Positions 17,278 to 32,471 of a stretch of DNA of 64,000 nucleotides are shown here, one piece after another. Location: the IMG/VR virus record IMGVR_UViG_2974724611_000001, positions 12,650 through 76,649 of that record; one strand, 5' to 3'. This DNA comes from Cinqassovirus ah1. Lineage: Duplodnaviria > Heunggongvirae > Uroviricota > Caudoviricetes > Straboviridae. Both the position numbers and the translations under genes were made by a program. The notes below the pieces were generated by a model. It did no database searches. It was not told the DNA's origin and saw only the letters and a program-made list of their open reading frames with translations. The number at the start of each line of letters is the position of its first letter. Position 1 is the stretch's first letter.

Positions 17278-19392
17278 TCACAAATGTTTACACCGCAACA
17301 TAACTTCTTGTTGTTTCCCGTGGTTGAATGGACGAGCATTTACTTCTCCCAGATAACCACAAACACGACGAATAACGTTCATTTTCTTGTCGTCGTGATT
17401 GCCGCATTTCGGACATTCGTACCCTTTGGAAGTAGCAGTGAATTCGCCATGATAGCCACATTCAAAGCAAACATCAACCGGAGTATTTGTTCCGTAATAC
17501 GGTGTGTTCAGATAAGCATAATCCCAAACGTCTTCCAGCGCTTTCAGATTATCTTTCATATTCGGATATTCACCGTATGAAATAAATCCGCCTGTACTCA
17601 GAGGAATAAATTGCTTTTCAAAATCGATCTTGTCATACGGATTAGTATTATGACGAACGTCGAGGTGAAAGCTGTTTGTGTAATAATCTTTATCGAACAC
17701 TTTATTTTCTGGATAACGTTCGCGATCAATCTTGGCGAAACGATAGCACAGACTTTCGGACGGAGTGCCGTACAGACTAAAAGCGAGTCCAGTTTGTTCT
17801 TTCCATGCATCTGCCAGCTCTTTCATTCGTTGAAGAACAGAAACAGCAAATACTTGTTTTGATTGATTTTCCATGATGTGTTCATCGATACCACGCATCA
17901 TAATTTCGGTGACTTCATGCAGACCGATATATCCAATACTCACGGAAGCGCGACCGTTATCAAACGCTTTCATGATATCATCATCTGGATTCAGACGTAC
18001 ACCACAAGCGCCTTCGACGTAAAGAATCGGAGCGACGCTGGCTTTGACTCCACGCAGACGATCAACGCGAGCAATCAACGCTTGCTTAACAACTTCCATA
18101 CGCTGTTCCAGAAGTTCCCAGAATCGCATATGATTGCCATTTGAATCGAGAGCGATTCGCGGCAGATTCAGAGTCACAACACCGAGATTATTTCTACCGT
18201 CGTGAACTTCATTACCGTTTTCGTCTTCCCAACGATGCAAGAAACTACGGCATCCCATAGGGAATTTAAAGCTACCTGTGATTTCAACAACTTTATCATA
18301 ACTCAGGATATCTGGATACATACGCTTAGAAGCGCACTCCAGTGCCAGTTGCTTGATTCGATAAAGCGGGTCAGTCGGCTTTAAGTTGTGTCCGTCTTTC
18401 AGAGCAAACACAAGTTTCGGGAACACCGGAGTGATACCCTCTTTGCCGAGTCCAGCTAATCGAACTTTCAAGATTGCTTCTTGAATCAGTTCGGCTTCCC
18501 AGCTTTCACCTAGACCAAATCCGAATGTGCAGAACGGGGTTTGGCCGTTTGCGGAGTGAAGAGTATTCACTTCGTATTCGAGACCCTGCATTGCATCATA
18601 CACAGCTTTGCGAGTCTTTGCAATAGCATATTCTTTCGCGTCTGGAATCTTCCAATAGCGAGCTTCGTCCAAATGCTTTTCGTGAGTCATTTTAACATAC
18701 GGTGCCAGCACTTCGTCAATGCGATTGATTGTGTTACCGCCATAAATGTGACTTGCCACTTGTGCAATAATCTGAGCGACTACAGCAGCAGCGGTAGAAA
18801 TGCTTTTCGGAGTTTCAATTTGTGCATTACCCATACGGAATCCACGTTCTAACATGCCTTTAACATCAATGAGCTGGCAGTTAAACATCGGGAAGAACGG
18901 TGAATAGTCAAGATCGTGGAAATGAATCCAACCCATTTCATGTGCTTGCATGACTTCGACAGGCAGATAATGCTTTGCAAAATGCTTGCTAACAATACCA
19001 GCTACCAGATCGCGTTGAGTAGGGATTACCTTAGCGTCTTTGTTGGCGTTTTCGTTCATGATTGATTCGTCGGATTGACGCATCAGGCCCATAATACGCT
19101 TTGTCATGTCAGAGTTAAGATCGCGGGCAACATCACGATCATATCGATATTCGATATAAGCGCGAGCCACAGCAGGATAGCGAGATCTCATTAGGGTATC
19201 TTCTACAGTATGCTGGATTTCTTCAATCGTTACTGTAGAGCGTCCAATGAGCTTACGAACAACAGCCTCGGTAGCGTGTTGCGGGAAAGTCATATCATTG
19301 ATGCCGATTGACTTGAGGGAATTGGTGATTGCGGTTTCAATAAAAGAACGATCAAAATCAACGATTCGACCGTCGCGTTTTTGTACTTGCAT
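17278..19392 (-). CDS. nrdD: Anaerobic ribonucleoside-triphosphate reductase NrdD
   Basis: 704 aa. ATP-cone N-terminus, a C-terminal CxxC...CPKCG zinc ribbon, and the glycyl-radical motif RRVCGYLG. Confidence 0.95.
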   Translation of the reverse strand: MQVQKRDGRIVDFDRSFIETAITNSLKSIGINDMTFPQHATEAVVRKLIGRSTVTIEEIQHTVEDTLMRSRYPAVARAYIEYRYDRDVARDLNSDMTKRIMGLMRQSDESIMNENANKDAKVIPTQRDLVAGIVSKHFAKHYLPVEVMQAHEMGWIHFHDLDYSPFFPMFNCQLIDVKGMLERGFRMGNAQIETPKSISTAAAVVAQIIAQVASHIYGGNTINRIDEVLAPYVKMTHEKHLDEARYWKIPDAKEYAIAKTRKAVYDAMQGLEYEVNTLHSANGQTPFCTFGFGLGESWEAELIQEAILKVRLAGLGKEGITPVFPKLVFALKDGHNLKPTDPLYRIKQLALECASKRMYPDILSYDKVVEITGSFKFPMGCRSFLHRWEDENGNEVHDGRNNLGVVTLNLPRIALDSNGNHMRFWELLEQRMEVVKQALIARVDRLRGVKASVAPILYVEGACGVRLNPDDDIMKAFDNGRASVSIGYIGLHEVTEIMMRGIDEHIMENQSKQVFAVSVLQRMKELADAWKEQTGLAFSLYGTPSESLCYRFAKIDRERYPENKVFDKDYYTNSFHLDVRHNTNPYDKIDFEKQFIPLSTGGFISYGEYPNMKDNLKALEDVWDYAYLNTPYYGTNTPVDVCFECGYHGEFTATSKGYECPKCGNHDDKKMNVIRRVCGYLGEVNARPFNHGKQQEVMLRCKHL

Positions 19393-19514
19393 TTTGTTTC
19401 CGTTGTGAGTGTGTAGGAAAAGAAAAACGAGTCTCTCGACTCGTTCTTATAGTAATACTATTTATGTCGGTAATAAACTTAGCCGAACAAAGAAAGTAAC
19501 TCGGTATCTTCTTT

Positions 19515-19601
19515 TTAGAAAATTGCTGGAGCAACAACGCCGAAAAGAATTCCCAGGATTGCAACAACAACAATCAATTCGATCAGAGTAAAGCCTTTCA
19601 T
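19515..19601 (-). CDS. 28-aa type-IV-prepilin-like hydrophobic peptide, translationally coupled to the upstream gene
   Basis: MKGFTLIELIVVVAILGILFGVVAPAIF. Its ATG overlaps the upstream TGA as ATGA, and GAGGA sits 8 nt upstream. It was missed by the ORF track's length cutoff. Confidence 0.45.
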   Translation of the reverse strand: MKGFTLIELIVVVAILGILFGVVAPAIF

Positions 19602-19862
19602 TTCAGATCCTCACATTGAGTAATGAGTTTAAAACCTTGTTTACGAACAATCGAACGAGCAGCACAGAAAGCACCGAACTTGCTCTTTGCTTCTATGTTC
19701 ATGATATCAGAGTCAAATTCAGATGTGTTCATATCATAGAACACCATACCAAACATACGGTGCGCGAAATCTTTGTTTTCTGACGCCATAGCCTCTCCGT
19801 TTGCAGCAACATAAGCTTGCTTAGTTTGTTCGTTCTTAAAAACCCGAATTTGGTATTTCATG
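19598..19862 (-). CDS. Hypothetical protein
   Basis: ORF trimmed to MKYQIRVFK, with an AGGAACA SD. Confidence 0.5.
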
Positions 19863-19931
19863 ATTTGTTCCTCTCGTTTAGATGTGTCCATATTATCAGA
19901 ACGATACCAAGTGTCAACACATTTTGGAAAT

Positions 19932-19957
19932 AAAAAATCCGCCCGAAGGCGGATTCT
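19932..19957 (-). terminator. Rho-independent terminator, UUCG tetraloop
   Basis: AAUCCGCC-UUCG-GGCGGAUUUUUUA on the minus strand. Confidence 0.6.
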
Positions 19958-19958
19958 G

Positions 19959-21089
19959 TTAAACTTCTAGTTCTTCAAAGAAACTATCATCGAGAGTTGA
20001 ATCAACTTGTCCGATCAGATAGCTAGACAACTCAGCCTCTTGGGCAGCGACTTGAACGGAATCACTATTCAGCCACTTGCGAATCCACGGAAGAGGGTGT
20101 TTCATGCTGGTATTCAGTTCTTCCGGTGCAGGAAGACCAGCAGAGCGCATACGGCTTACAGTCAGATAATCGATGTAATCCAACATGCTAGATAGACTCA
20201 GGCCAGGAATAGTAACATTACCAAGCAAGTCTCTTGCCCAGTCTTTCTCTTGTTCGGCAACTTCCAAGAAGATTTGTACCGCTTTGTGTTCGAGACGTTT
20301 AGCAATCTCATACATTTCGGTATCATCTTCTGCATTCTGCCAAGCACGGATCAGATACTGGGTGCCTTTCAGATGAAGCTGTTCATCACGCGCAATCAGA
20401 CGCATAATCTTAGCATTGCCTTCCATGATACCGCGTTCAGCGAACGAGAAGGTGCAAGCAAAGCTAACATAAAAACGAATTGCTTCCAAAGCGTTTACGG
20501 CGTGCATTGCAAGATACAACGCTTCTTTGACCTTGGTCAGTTGTGCAATTCGCAACTCCGGAGAGAATACGGGCTGTGATACCAGATCGTATGTTTTCAA
20601 CTCTTTGATCAGATTATCGTAATACTGAGTTACAGAAGTGGCACGTGCCATGATCTTACTGTCAAGCAGAATCTTATCAAACACAGCAGACGGATCAACA
20701 TAGATATTCCGCATGATGTGAGTATAAGAACGGCTATGAATTGTCTCACTAAAACTCCAAGTAGTGATCCAAGTCTCAAGCGCAACATCGGACACGATTG
20801 GCAAGAATACCAAGTTAGGTGCGCGACCCTGCACGGAGTCAAGCAGACTTTGATATTTCAGATTCTGGGTGAAAACATGCTGTTCGGCTTCACTCAGTTG
20901 ATTGTAGTCGATTGCATCTTTGGACAAATCCACTTCTTCGGGACGCCAGAAAAATGAGAGCGAACGTTCCGTTAATTTATCAATCGCTGGGTGTTTTACT
21001 GTTTCATATCTGGCTAATCCCATTGCTTCGCCCAAGAACAACGGAGCTTTCATATGATCAACTACATTTTTATTAAATACGGTATCCAT
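19959..21089 (-). CDS. nrdB: Ribonucleotide reductase class Ia beta subunit NrdB
   Basis: 376 aa. Carries the diiron/tyrosyl-radical family signature (SFFWRPEEVD, ETIHSRSY) and the conserved C-terminal tail. Confidence 0.93.
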   Translation of the reverse strand: MDTVFNKNVVDHMKAPLFLGEAMGLARYETVKHPAIDKLTERSLSFFWRPEEVDLSKDAIDYNQLSEAEQHVFTQNLKYQSLLDSVQGRAPNLVFLPIVSDVALETWITTWSFSETIHSRSYTHIMRNIYVDPSAVFDKILLDSKIMARATSVTQYYDNLIKELKTYDLVSQPVFSPELRIAQLTKVKEALYLAMHAVNALEAIRFYVSFACTFSFAERGIMEGNAKIMRLIARDEQLHLKGTQYLIRAWQNAEDDTEMYEIAKRLEHKAVQIFLEVAEQEKDWARDLLGNVTIPGLSLSSMLDYIDYLTVSRMRSAGLPAPEELNTSMKHPLPWIRKWLNSDSVQVAAQEAELSSYLIGQVDSTLDDSFFEELEV

Positions 21090-31526: not shown

Positions 31527-32471
31527 TTACTGCATTTGTTTCAGGAACAGCGGAGCTTGACCGTTGCCCATCATAGTGAAGTTTGCAGGTACTTGACCGT
31601 TCCAACCGGTACCAGCTTTCTTCATTTCAACTTCTAGACGCTTCAACTCGATGATCTGAGGAGTCAGAGAAGATGCCAATTTGGCGTTACCAATCGCGGT
31701 TTGTTCAGCCATGTAACGATCTGCATCTGCTTTCTGTTTTACACCGTCAGCATAAGCTTTGGCTTGAACGAAAGTTTGGTAAGCAGCGGCTTCATACTTC
31801 GCTTTATCTGCGGCAGCTTGACCCTTAGCAGTTGCTTCGGTAGTCTGTGCAGCAGTGGTAGCGATTCGCAACTGGGATTTCTCAGCTTCTTCCTTCTGGA
31901 TTCGATCTTGAGTTTGCAGAATTTGATTCTGAATTCGCGGATCGAAAGTTACATCTTGTACCAGAACTTCTTGCAGAGTGATACCAGTGCCGGTCAGTGC
32001 TTCTTGCAGACGACGCTTGGTATTCTCTTGCATCGCGGTTACATTGAAGCTATCAGCCAGACCACGGGAGTCAGCAATTTTACGGCCTTCGTCTTTGATA
32101 ATGCTAGTCAGGAACTGAGACATTGCCTTATCAACAAACATTTCCATAGTACCGTAGTTCTTTTTGATGAACGGGGTCTTGGAGTTGTCTACACGATACA
32201 ACACGGTAACGTTGGCGGTACTGTTGAAACGGTCTTTAGTCGGGATCAGCAAGTTTTCTTTAACAAACTTGTTGTTCCGGGTATCGAAAGTATCAAATCC
32301 CATAAACGGGTTTACAAAGTGCAGACCTTCTTCCAGCGGACGATCTTGAACTTCGCCCATCAGAGTACCGACTTTGGTAGTACCGGCGTCAACGATAGTA
32401 AAGCAGTTGGAACCGATAACGATAGCTACCAGAGCAGCAACACCAGTAATACCCATTTTGAATTGATTCAT
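31527..32471 (-). CDS. SPFH/band-7 (prohibitin/HflC-like) membrane protein
   Basis: 314 aa. N-terminal TM (GVAALVAIVIGSNCF), then an SPFH-like core and an Ala/Gln/Lys-rich coiled coil. Confidence 0.7.
   Translation of the reverse strand: MNQFKMGITGVAALVAIVIGSNCFTIVDAGTTKVGTLMGEVQDRPLEEGLHFVNPFMGFDTFDTRNNKFVKENLLIPTKDRFNSTANVTVLYRVDNSKTPFIKKNYGTMEMFVDKAMSQFLTSIIKDEGRKIADSRGLADSFNVTAMQENTKRRLQEALTGTGITLQEVLVQDVTFDPRIQNQILQTQDRIQKEEAEKSQLRIATTAAQTTEATAKGQAAADKAKYEAAAYQTFVQAKAYADGVKQKADADRYMAEQTAIGNAKLASSLTPQIIELKRLEVEMKKAGTGWNGQVPANFTMMGNGQAPLFLKQMQ

Follow-up and report, generated by a model that had tools for sequence, protein, structure and literature searches.

A phage gene for a pilin helix without a head: a 28-codon ORF of Aeromonas phage Ah1 with a predicted prepilin signal and a possible role as a pilin mimic

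The prepilin-type N-terminal domain described by the models PF07963 and TIGR02532 consists of a basic leader running to a Gly, followed by Phe1-Thr-Leu-Ile-Glu5 and about 20 hydrophobic residues that include Gly14 and Pro22. Phe1, Glu5, Gly14 and Pro22 are hallmark positions of the alpha1-N helix of pilins, as is established from pilin structure. A pilin membrane helix without the globular domain is biologically active in Caulobacter, where CIP, the 17-residue membrane helix of PilA, binds PleC and changes c-di-GMP and, when added as a peptide, lowered susceptibility to phage phiCbK by 77% and attachment by 71% (PMC7196804). A direct contact is also described for PilS, which contacts PilA for autoregulation (PMC6058289). 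Viruses are known both to supply pilins and to act against pili. The archaeal virus SNJ2 encodes functional type IV pilins that use the host assembly machinery; these are full-length, form the dominant surface pili and are the receptor for another virus (PMC12426801). PfsE of Pf4, a very small inner-membrane protein and the smallest that Pf4 has, blocks type IV pili via the platform protein PilC (PMC8764522). PfsE uses an aromatic YAWGW cluster, whereas Aqs1 of DMS3 and Tip of D3112 bind the ATPase PilB.

Here we describe a gene of Ah1, a T4-like phage that infects Aeromonas hydrophila, which encodes a prepilin-type N-terminus and which we refer to as a mini-pilin (Table 1). It lies in a stretch of 64,000 nucleotides (the window), which over positions 19300-20000 matches Aeromonas phage Ah1 (NC_055733; Straboviridae, Cinqassovirus) at 100% identity. 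The mini-pilin has all the features of the PF07963/TIGR02532 domain given above, but in it the domain is the entire protein, it is phage-encoded and just two residues precede the Gly. With CIP it has in common that a pilin membrane helix stands without a globular domain; CIP, however, is an experimental truncation or synthetic peptide of a host Flp-type pilin and not a natural phage gene, and both its motif and its host are different. [quoted passage not shown] With Zip they make up a class of superinfection-exclusion proteins that is delimited by experiment, through inhibited twitching or piliation and phage resistance when the protein is expressed (PMC8764522). Relative to the SNJ2 pilins it is the opposite, a truncated and presumably non-assembling helix.

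Table 1. Features at and around the mini-pilin locus, with positions in the window.
Feature	Position	Strand	Details
nrdA	23372-21138	-	
nrdB	21089-19959	-	
Intrinsic-terminator-like hairpin and T-run closing the nrdA-nrdB unit	19934..19957	-	10-bp stem, 5 GC pairs
Sigma-70-type promoter-like site, extended -10	19890..19917	-	TTGACA, 16 nt, TG-TAATAT; consensus match 10/12 + TG
Upstream 87-aa gene (Ah1 gp041, phrog_23306)	19598..19861	-	TGA overlaps mini-pilin ATG
Shine-Dalgarno GAGGA	19608..19612	-	6 nt 5' of ATG; kept in 7/7 Aeromonas T4-like orthologues
Mini-pilin ORF	19515..19601	-	ATG start, 28 codons + TAA; encodes MKGFTLIELIVVVAILGILFGVVAPAIF
Predicted leader Met-Lys-Gly	19593..19601	-	Putative prepilin-peptidase site after Gly3 (TIGR02532/PF07963 alignment)
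Predicted mature 25-residue helix	19518..19592	-	FTLIELIVVVAILGILFGVVAPAIF, with Phe1, Glu5, Gly14, Pro22 (sequence, alignment)
Intrinsic-terminator-like hairpin before nrdD	19423..19448	-	11-bp stem, GAGA loop, TTTTTCTTTT tail
nrdD	19392-17278	-	
Band_7 homologue	31527-32471		

That the product resembles a pilin is already known, since the resemblance has stood in annotations for two decades, and the domain family itself is known as well. The Aeh1 orthologue, Aeh1p044, has borne the note [quoted passage not shown] since 2003, similar pilin notes are present in the records of PX29 (gp038) and Aes508, and a pilin Pfam match marks KVP40.0030. In the records of Ah1, phiAS5, phiWae14 and AsFcp_2 the gene is not annotated, a gap that reflects how ORFs of fewer than 30 codons escape routine gene calling. 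Our literature searches turned up passing remarks, such as that ORF231 of ValKK3 resembles PilE (PMC13142089), but no study of what the prepilin-like peptides of phages do. The first-pass annotation, made from the DNA alone, had stated that no pseudopilin-mimic peptide was known; no function has been reported, but the GenBank notes of 2003 and six PHROG families of phage prepilin-like proteins weaken a claim of complete novelty.

The ORF that was proposed in that annotation is present, and its product is exactly the 28-residue peptide given there. Both N-terminal models recognize it above their curated cut-offs, PF07963 with 32.8 bits (E=4.4e-8; gathering score 21.2) and TIGR02532 with 34.5 bits (cut-off 16.3), confirming the prepilin-type N-terminus. 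The peptide reads MK-G|FTLIE-LIVVVAILGILFGVVAPAIF, that is, a basic leader to Gly(-1), Phe(+1), Glu(+5) and about 20 hydrophobic residues, and it is the sole instance of a G[F..]TLIEL-type motif in the six frames of the window. We found neither an alpha1-C helix nor the globular beta-sheet head of a structural subunit in the mini-pilin. As had been claimed, the stop codon follows directly on the hydrophobic helix (mature residue 25), and 3' of it there is only the terminator and then nrdD. In terms of established pilin structure, the peptide ends about where the alpha1-N helix would exit the membrane. None of the full-length models (GspG TIGR01710, GspH, PilA, PpdD and ComGC) passed, the best being GspG with 30.5 bits versus 88.85. 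The GspG, GspH, PilA and PpdD models cover the shared N-terminus only, and the HMM scores do not separate type IV pili (T4P) from type II secretion (T2SS). As predicted from its sequence, the mini-pilin product is a class III (prepilin) signal plus an alpha1-N membrane helix, and nothing else.

Three details of the first description of the locus required correction. The mini-pilin ATG and the upstream TGA do overlap, in the sequence ATGA, and a GAGGA Shine-Dalgarno sequence does precede the ATG, but at a distance of 6 nt rather than 8. RefSeq gives the upstream gene a length of 87 aa, not 88 aa; a 97-aa reading of it was also considered and rejected because the start would fall within the -10 element of the promoter. 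Lastly, the mini-pilin gene is not downstream of nrdD but lies 3' of nrdB and 5' of nrdD, with a terminator-like hairpin between it and nrdD. The order on the minus strand, which carries every local gene, is nrdA, nrdB, the 87-aa gene, the mini-pilin ORF, the terminator, nrdD and nrdG. For the 87-aa gene there was no match in Pfam or NCBIfam and just one other database cluster.

How unusual is such a short form? As a baseline for length we scanned bacterial genomes for the same 13 N-terminal residues, GFTLIELIVVVAI, which gave at least 120 loci and 115 complete genes. Among the matches listed, the mature proteins of these 115 complete genes span 60-625 aa (median 139), with none below 60, and the predicted mature length of the mini-pilin, 25 aa, falls outside that range. 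Its leader, with Met-Lys before the Gly, is likewise shorter than the leaders of the bacterial genes sampled, among the matches listed, and there is no Aeromonas locus among the matches listed for this N-terminus. From these comparisons the gene appears to be deliberately truncated. Should the product prove to be processed and active, all pilins sampled from bacteria, among the matches listed, would be far longer.

A second question is whether the ORF is a gene at all. Orthologues were sought by DNA patterns, by tblastn and with a 31-aa open frame, and six further T4-like phages of Aeromonas that were examined proved to carry forms of 27-29 aa between nrdB and nrdD: Aeh1 and avDM12 (28 aa, with Gly21 replaced by Ser), AsFcp_2 (28 aa, MKGFTLIELIVVVAILGILFSVVAPTIF), phiAS5 (27 aa, MKGFTLIELIVVIAVLGIVAAILPKIF), phiWae14 (27 aa, like phiAS5 but with Val12 replaced by Met) and PX29 (29 aa, MKGFTLIELLVVVAIIGILASVSIPALFH). 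The phages with the conserved peptide are assigned to three genera, Cinqassovirus, Chrysonvirus and Angelvirus, and the orthologues score 35.5-37.9 bits with the prepilin N-terminal profile. All share the start codon, the GAGGA and the stop position, while the flanking genes vary. KGFTLIEL is invariant in all the aligned Aeromonas and Vibrio phage homologues, Gly14 is retained in every T4-like form, and Pro22 is retained in the Ah1 group, PX29 and the T5-like form and is found at residue 21 in phiAS5 and phiWae14. Between the Ah1 group and the phiAS5 group, pS is 0.71-0.75 (saturated) and pN is 0.17-0.22, giving a dN/dS of about 0.06-0.11, and so low a ratio at saturated synonymous sites indicates that the protein sequence is under purifying selection. 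The first-pass annotation had allowed for the case that only the nucleotides, and not the ORF, might be conserved; what we found is a small ORF kept at the protein level at the same slot in related phages. On this comparative evidence we consider that the mini-pilin ORF is a real phage gene under selection, and its translation signals are good.

The same observations bear on the idea that the gene is a remnant, the decaying 5' end of a captured host pilin or pseudopilin gene that was retained merely for its small size. It does sit in a variable region, where two genes present between the peptide and nrdD in Aeh1, phiAS5 and PX29 are absent from Ah1 and AsFcp, and its lack of annotation in the four records named above would suit a relic, but the low dN/dS and the start, Shine-Dalgarno sequence and stop position conserved across three genera would not, nor would the persistence of the peptide in PX29, where the upstream partner gene was lost, or the similar mini forms in a T5-like phage family. 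We regard a remnant as highly improbable, as the conservation pattern largely refutes it. Several other accounts of the conserved segment were set aside. An RNA element as the cause of conservation was rejected, as an Rfam search of 19300-20000 gave no family near its gathering score. A 60-aa ORF on the plus strand (19409-19591) overlaps the gene and the antisense frame is open in all orthologues, yet this ORF runs on into unconserved flanking sequence and was rejected. A split pilin was also rejected, as the downstream genes of Aeh1, PX29, phiAS5 and AhP_Mru1 have no Pfam match and Ah1 has none before nrdD. The 87-aa gene was likewise rejected as an obligatory partner of the mini-pilin, as it is absent in PX29.

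The surroundings of the gene have the anatomy of a separate transcription unit. The nrdA-nrdB unit is closed by a terminator-like hairpin that has counterparts 3' of nrdB in PX29 and phiAS5, and it is followed by a promoter-like site that is orthologous to sites in PX29 (11/12 + TG) and phiAS5 (10/12 + TG); in PX29 the peptide gene is the first gene after this site. The terminator-promoter-terminator layout is common to Ah1, PX29 and phiAS5. The mini-pilin unit has, therefore, the look of an early unit read by the host polymerase, and the gene is probably expressed early.

What might a pilin helix without a head do in an infected cell? We propose that it is a dominant-negative pilin mimic that enters pilin maturation and disturbs T4P and/or T2SS, and we put the probability of this chain as a whole at roughly 0.4. 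The first-pass annotation had already suggested a mini-pilin that is cut by the host prepilin peptidase and poisons or caps pilus or T2SS assembly, an interpretation that is partly supported. In the first step, host RNA polymerase would read from the promoter through the 87-aa gene and the peptide gene to the terminator, elements that are seen in the DNA, and the peptide would be translated by coupling to the 87-aa gene. In the second, it would enter the inner membrane in the manner of a prepilin, with Met-Lys-Gly on the cytoplasmic side, and in the third a host prepilin peptidase (TapD/PilD type) would cut after Gly3 and methylate Phe1, leaving a 25-residue helix that retains Glu5, Gly14 and Pro22. 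In the fourth, the headless helix would imitate, in a dominant-negative manner, the pilins or pseudopilins pooled in the membrane, competing for the sites that recognize alpha1-N on the peptidase, on the PilC/GspF platform and alignment proteins and at the base of the growing filament, with pilin-sensing kinases possibly a further site to be contested. The outcome would be that type IV pili and/or the T2SS pseudopilus are no longer extended during infection, from which the phage would likely benefit in one of two ways: 1. if pilus-dependent competitor phages are excluded, or 2. if costly or harmful host surface functions are shut down.

The conservation of the cleavage motif, Glu5, Gly14 and Pro22 leads us to think that the peptide would use the pilin maturation pathway rather than serve as a generic anchor, and three precedents, those of CIP with PleC, PilS with PilA and PfsE with PilC, make a mimic plausible. 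In Aeromonas the peptidase TapD acts for the Tap pilus as well as for Exe type II secretion, and on this basis both systems could be affected. Against the mimic speaks the leader, with its mere Met-Lys before the Gly. The Ah1-type phages are virulent and T4-like and their receptors are not known to be pili, and because of this the benefit of shutting down T4P or T2SS in a short lytic cycle is speculative. Transcriptional routes of the PilS-PilR type would be of little weight if host transcription is shut off.

The last point matters for a different view of the same helix, in which it is sensed by host kinases that monitor inner-membrane pilin, of the PilS or the Caulobacter PleC type, so that the phage reprogrammes the c-di-GMP or surface-sensing state instead of physically blocking a machine. 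The CIP helix suffices for PleC-dependent c-di-GMP signaling, with a change in pilus function within 10 min (PMC7196804), PilS and PilA interact directly (PMC6058289), and the phage peptide retains the whole of alpha1-N including Glu5 and Pro22. A virulent T4-like phage, however, probably profits little from host transcriptional responses, and the parent pilin of CIP is of the Flp type (type IVc) and has another motif, and we consider a signaling role of this kind improbable. One more signal was considered and rejected. A truncated pilin, PilA108, activates a DegS/AlgW-type protease via its C-terminal Phe (PMC3684759), but a C-terminal Phe as an envelope-stress signal is not conserved in the phage peptides, of which that of PX29 ends in His and the T5-like form in Pro.

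The Ah1 group is not alone in encoding such N-termini. By tblastn, prepilin-type N-termini were found in 171 phage records, with host genera that include Synechococcus (49), Pseudomonas (46), Vibrio (32), Aeromonas (26) and Acinetobacter (6), and there were no Escherichia or Klebsiella phages among the 171. Their lengths range widely, from 37 aa in T5-like Aeromonas phages (AhP_Mru1, AhSzw-1) through 59 aa in the KPP10-like Pseudomonas phage vB_PaeM_G1 (KPP10 gp132 family, phrog_10597), 66-67 aa in KVP40-like Vibrio phages (KVP40.0030 family, phrog_13280), 75 aa in the T4-like Aeromonas phage Aes508 (Aes508_086) and 107 aa in Acinetobacter phage Acibel004 (Acibel004_97) to 117-123 aa in cyanophages ("pilin", phrog_3433). 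KVP40.0030, KPP10 gp132, Aes508_086, Acibel004_97 and the cyanophage pilin have the N-terminal motif in common with the Ah1 peptide, but in these longer relatives a hydrophilic tail of 30-100 residues follows the helix, whereas peptides of the Ah1 type are without a tail. Their genomic neighbors differ too, the KVP40 gene adjoining thymidylate synthase and the Aes508 gene adjoining Band_7. The Ah1-type peptide thus stands at the short extreme of a broader and unstudied range of small prepilin-like proteins from phages. Beyond the helix, the C-terminal tails of the longer relatives show no relationship among themselves, and for this reason the group may not share one function.

The unrelated tails and, mainly, a neighborhood with SPFH/Band_7 genes that recurs in other phages support an explanation apart from pili. 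The product could be a small membrane peptide of a generic kind, with no part in pili or secretion, its prepilin N-terminus borrowed only as an efficient device for membrane insertion and anchoring, and with a role in membrane potential, in lysis timing, in blocking DNA entry by superinfecting T4-like phages as T4 Imm and Sp do, or as a partner of membrane-organizing proteins. The product is essentially a single hydrophobic helix, several small membrane proteins of T4-like phages are known to act in exclusion and lysis control, and in Aes508, GomatiRiver_11 and AhP_Mru1 a prepilin-like gene lies directly, or nearly so, 3' of an SPFH/Band_7 gene for a membrane scaffold, a neighbor that recurs in uncultured contigs of about 108 kb; the Aes508 gene is also near rI. 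In Ah1, however, the Band_7 homologue is 12 kb from the mini-pilin ORF. A mere anchor would need neither an invariant KGFTLIEL nor a Gly14 and Pro22 kept across host genera, and the distribution of the prepilin-like genes over host genera is more easily explained by a pilin-related function. We think a generic role rather unlikely.

Returning to the dominant-negative mimic, could it extend beyond the Ah1 group? We tentatively suggest, with more doubt than conviction, that many lytic phages of piliated bacteria encode a class of "mini-pilins", host-takeover factors that have so far gone unrecognized. Such proteins, made up of a prepilin signal and an alpha1-N helix with or without a short tail, might enter pilin maturation, act as dominant-negative subunits or mimics of the pilin pool and so switch off T4P and/or T2SS from within the membrane. 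If the class is real, the 25-residue form of the Aeromonas phages would represent it in its minimal natural form, as a counterpart in nature to the synthetic CIP, and subunit mimicry would join the binding of PilB and PilC as a phage way to disable pili. An active mini-pilin would also be a natural probe of what alpha1-N does by itself in peptidase recognition, platform docking, incorporation into the filament and sensing by kinases, and possibly a template for peptides against such virulence as depends on pili or secretion in Aeromonas, Vibrio, Pseudomonas and Acinetobacter.

Regarding classification, six PHROG families share the prepilin N-terminus, of which five have unknown functions and one bears the label "pilin". 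The best match of the mini-pilin is phrog_13280, with 34.2 bits over profile positions 4-30 of 67 only; the conserved C-terminal tail of that family (YEIDGQLMQCTPVQ..WDDDF) is absent from the mini-pilin, which is not a member by the whole profile. Between the Ah1 gene and the Vibrio phage genes, nucleotide identity is 83.6% over 60 nt. Further short forms emerged when 1.84 billion representative proteins were scanned in full and a word index was then searched; two of them, uncultured forms of 55 aa and 66 aa, are encoded on contigs that reach about 110 kb and carry dense, phage-like gene arrays.

Over their first 60 nt, the genes for the prepilin-like homologues of Vibrio phages are 83.6% identical to the mini-pilin gene of Ah1, and because of this identity we consider that the sequences suggest either a common origin or a transfer between Aeromonas and Vibrio T4-like phages. 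A hydrophilic tail (…YEIDGQLMQCTPVQ..WDDDF) is conserved among the 66-67-aa Vibrio phage homologues, whose genes lie shortly before the one for thymidylate synthase.

The mini-pilin ORF is annotated in the records of Aeh1 and PX29 and is missing from those of Ah1, phiAS5, phiWae14 and AsFcp_2 (the records without it being NC_055733, NC_014636, LC778249 and MH791401). It exemplifies the loss of conserved genes of fewer than 30 codons by gene callers. A different annotation question arises for GomatiRiver_11, in whose annotated product the GFTLIEL motif begins only at residue 79. An internal Met lies approximately 19 residues before the motif (MKLKERKSKRTVPGVKANG|FTLIEL) and, when the protein is set against its 75-aa homologue in Aes508, is the likelier start of this prepilin-like protein.

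Features discussed (L numbers, retrieved loci of other phages or contigs, with coordinates within each locus)
Feature	Source	Location	Strand	Remark
Mini-pilin ORF	Ah1	window 19515-19601	-	
Prepilin-like homologue KVP40.0030	Vibrio phage	L009 2492-2692		
Prepilin-like homologue VH7D gp250	Vibrio phage	L002 3000-3203		
Prepilin-like gene	GomatiRiver_11	L170 1767-2225		annotated product 152 aa
Band_7 + prepilin-like pair	Aes508	L169 1006-2219		
Band_7 + prepilin-like pair	GomatiRiver_11	L170 794-2225		
Band_7 + prepilin-like pair	AhP_Mru1	L042 1172-2614		
Band_7 + prepilin-like pair	uncultured contig	L163 4955-6168		
Band_7 homologue	Ah1	window 31527-32471	-	12 kb from mini-pilin
Mini-pilin-nrdD interval	Ah1	window 19393-19514		
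Intervals compared with it		L003 2986-3750; L004 2973-3853; L006 2591-3445		

In four phage contexts, three of which represent clearly different phage groups, a gene for a prepilin-like mini-protein lies directly or nearly directly downstream of an SPFH/Band_7 membrane-scaffold gene, and the adjoining Band_7 proteins are themselves highly divergent. In Ah1, the ORF that comes after the Band_7 homologue encodes 102 aa, and its product is hydrophobic at the N-terminus.

The interval between the mini-pilin gene and nrdD is an indel hot spot. Only the terminator and 120 nt, with no extra genes, occupy it in Ah1 and AsFcp_2; two additional genes of unknown function are present in Aeh1, avDM12, phiAS5, phiWae14 and PX29, one of them preceded by a sigma-70-like promoter in phiAS5 and PX29.
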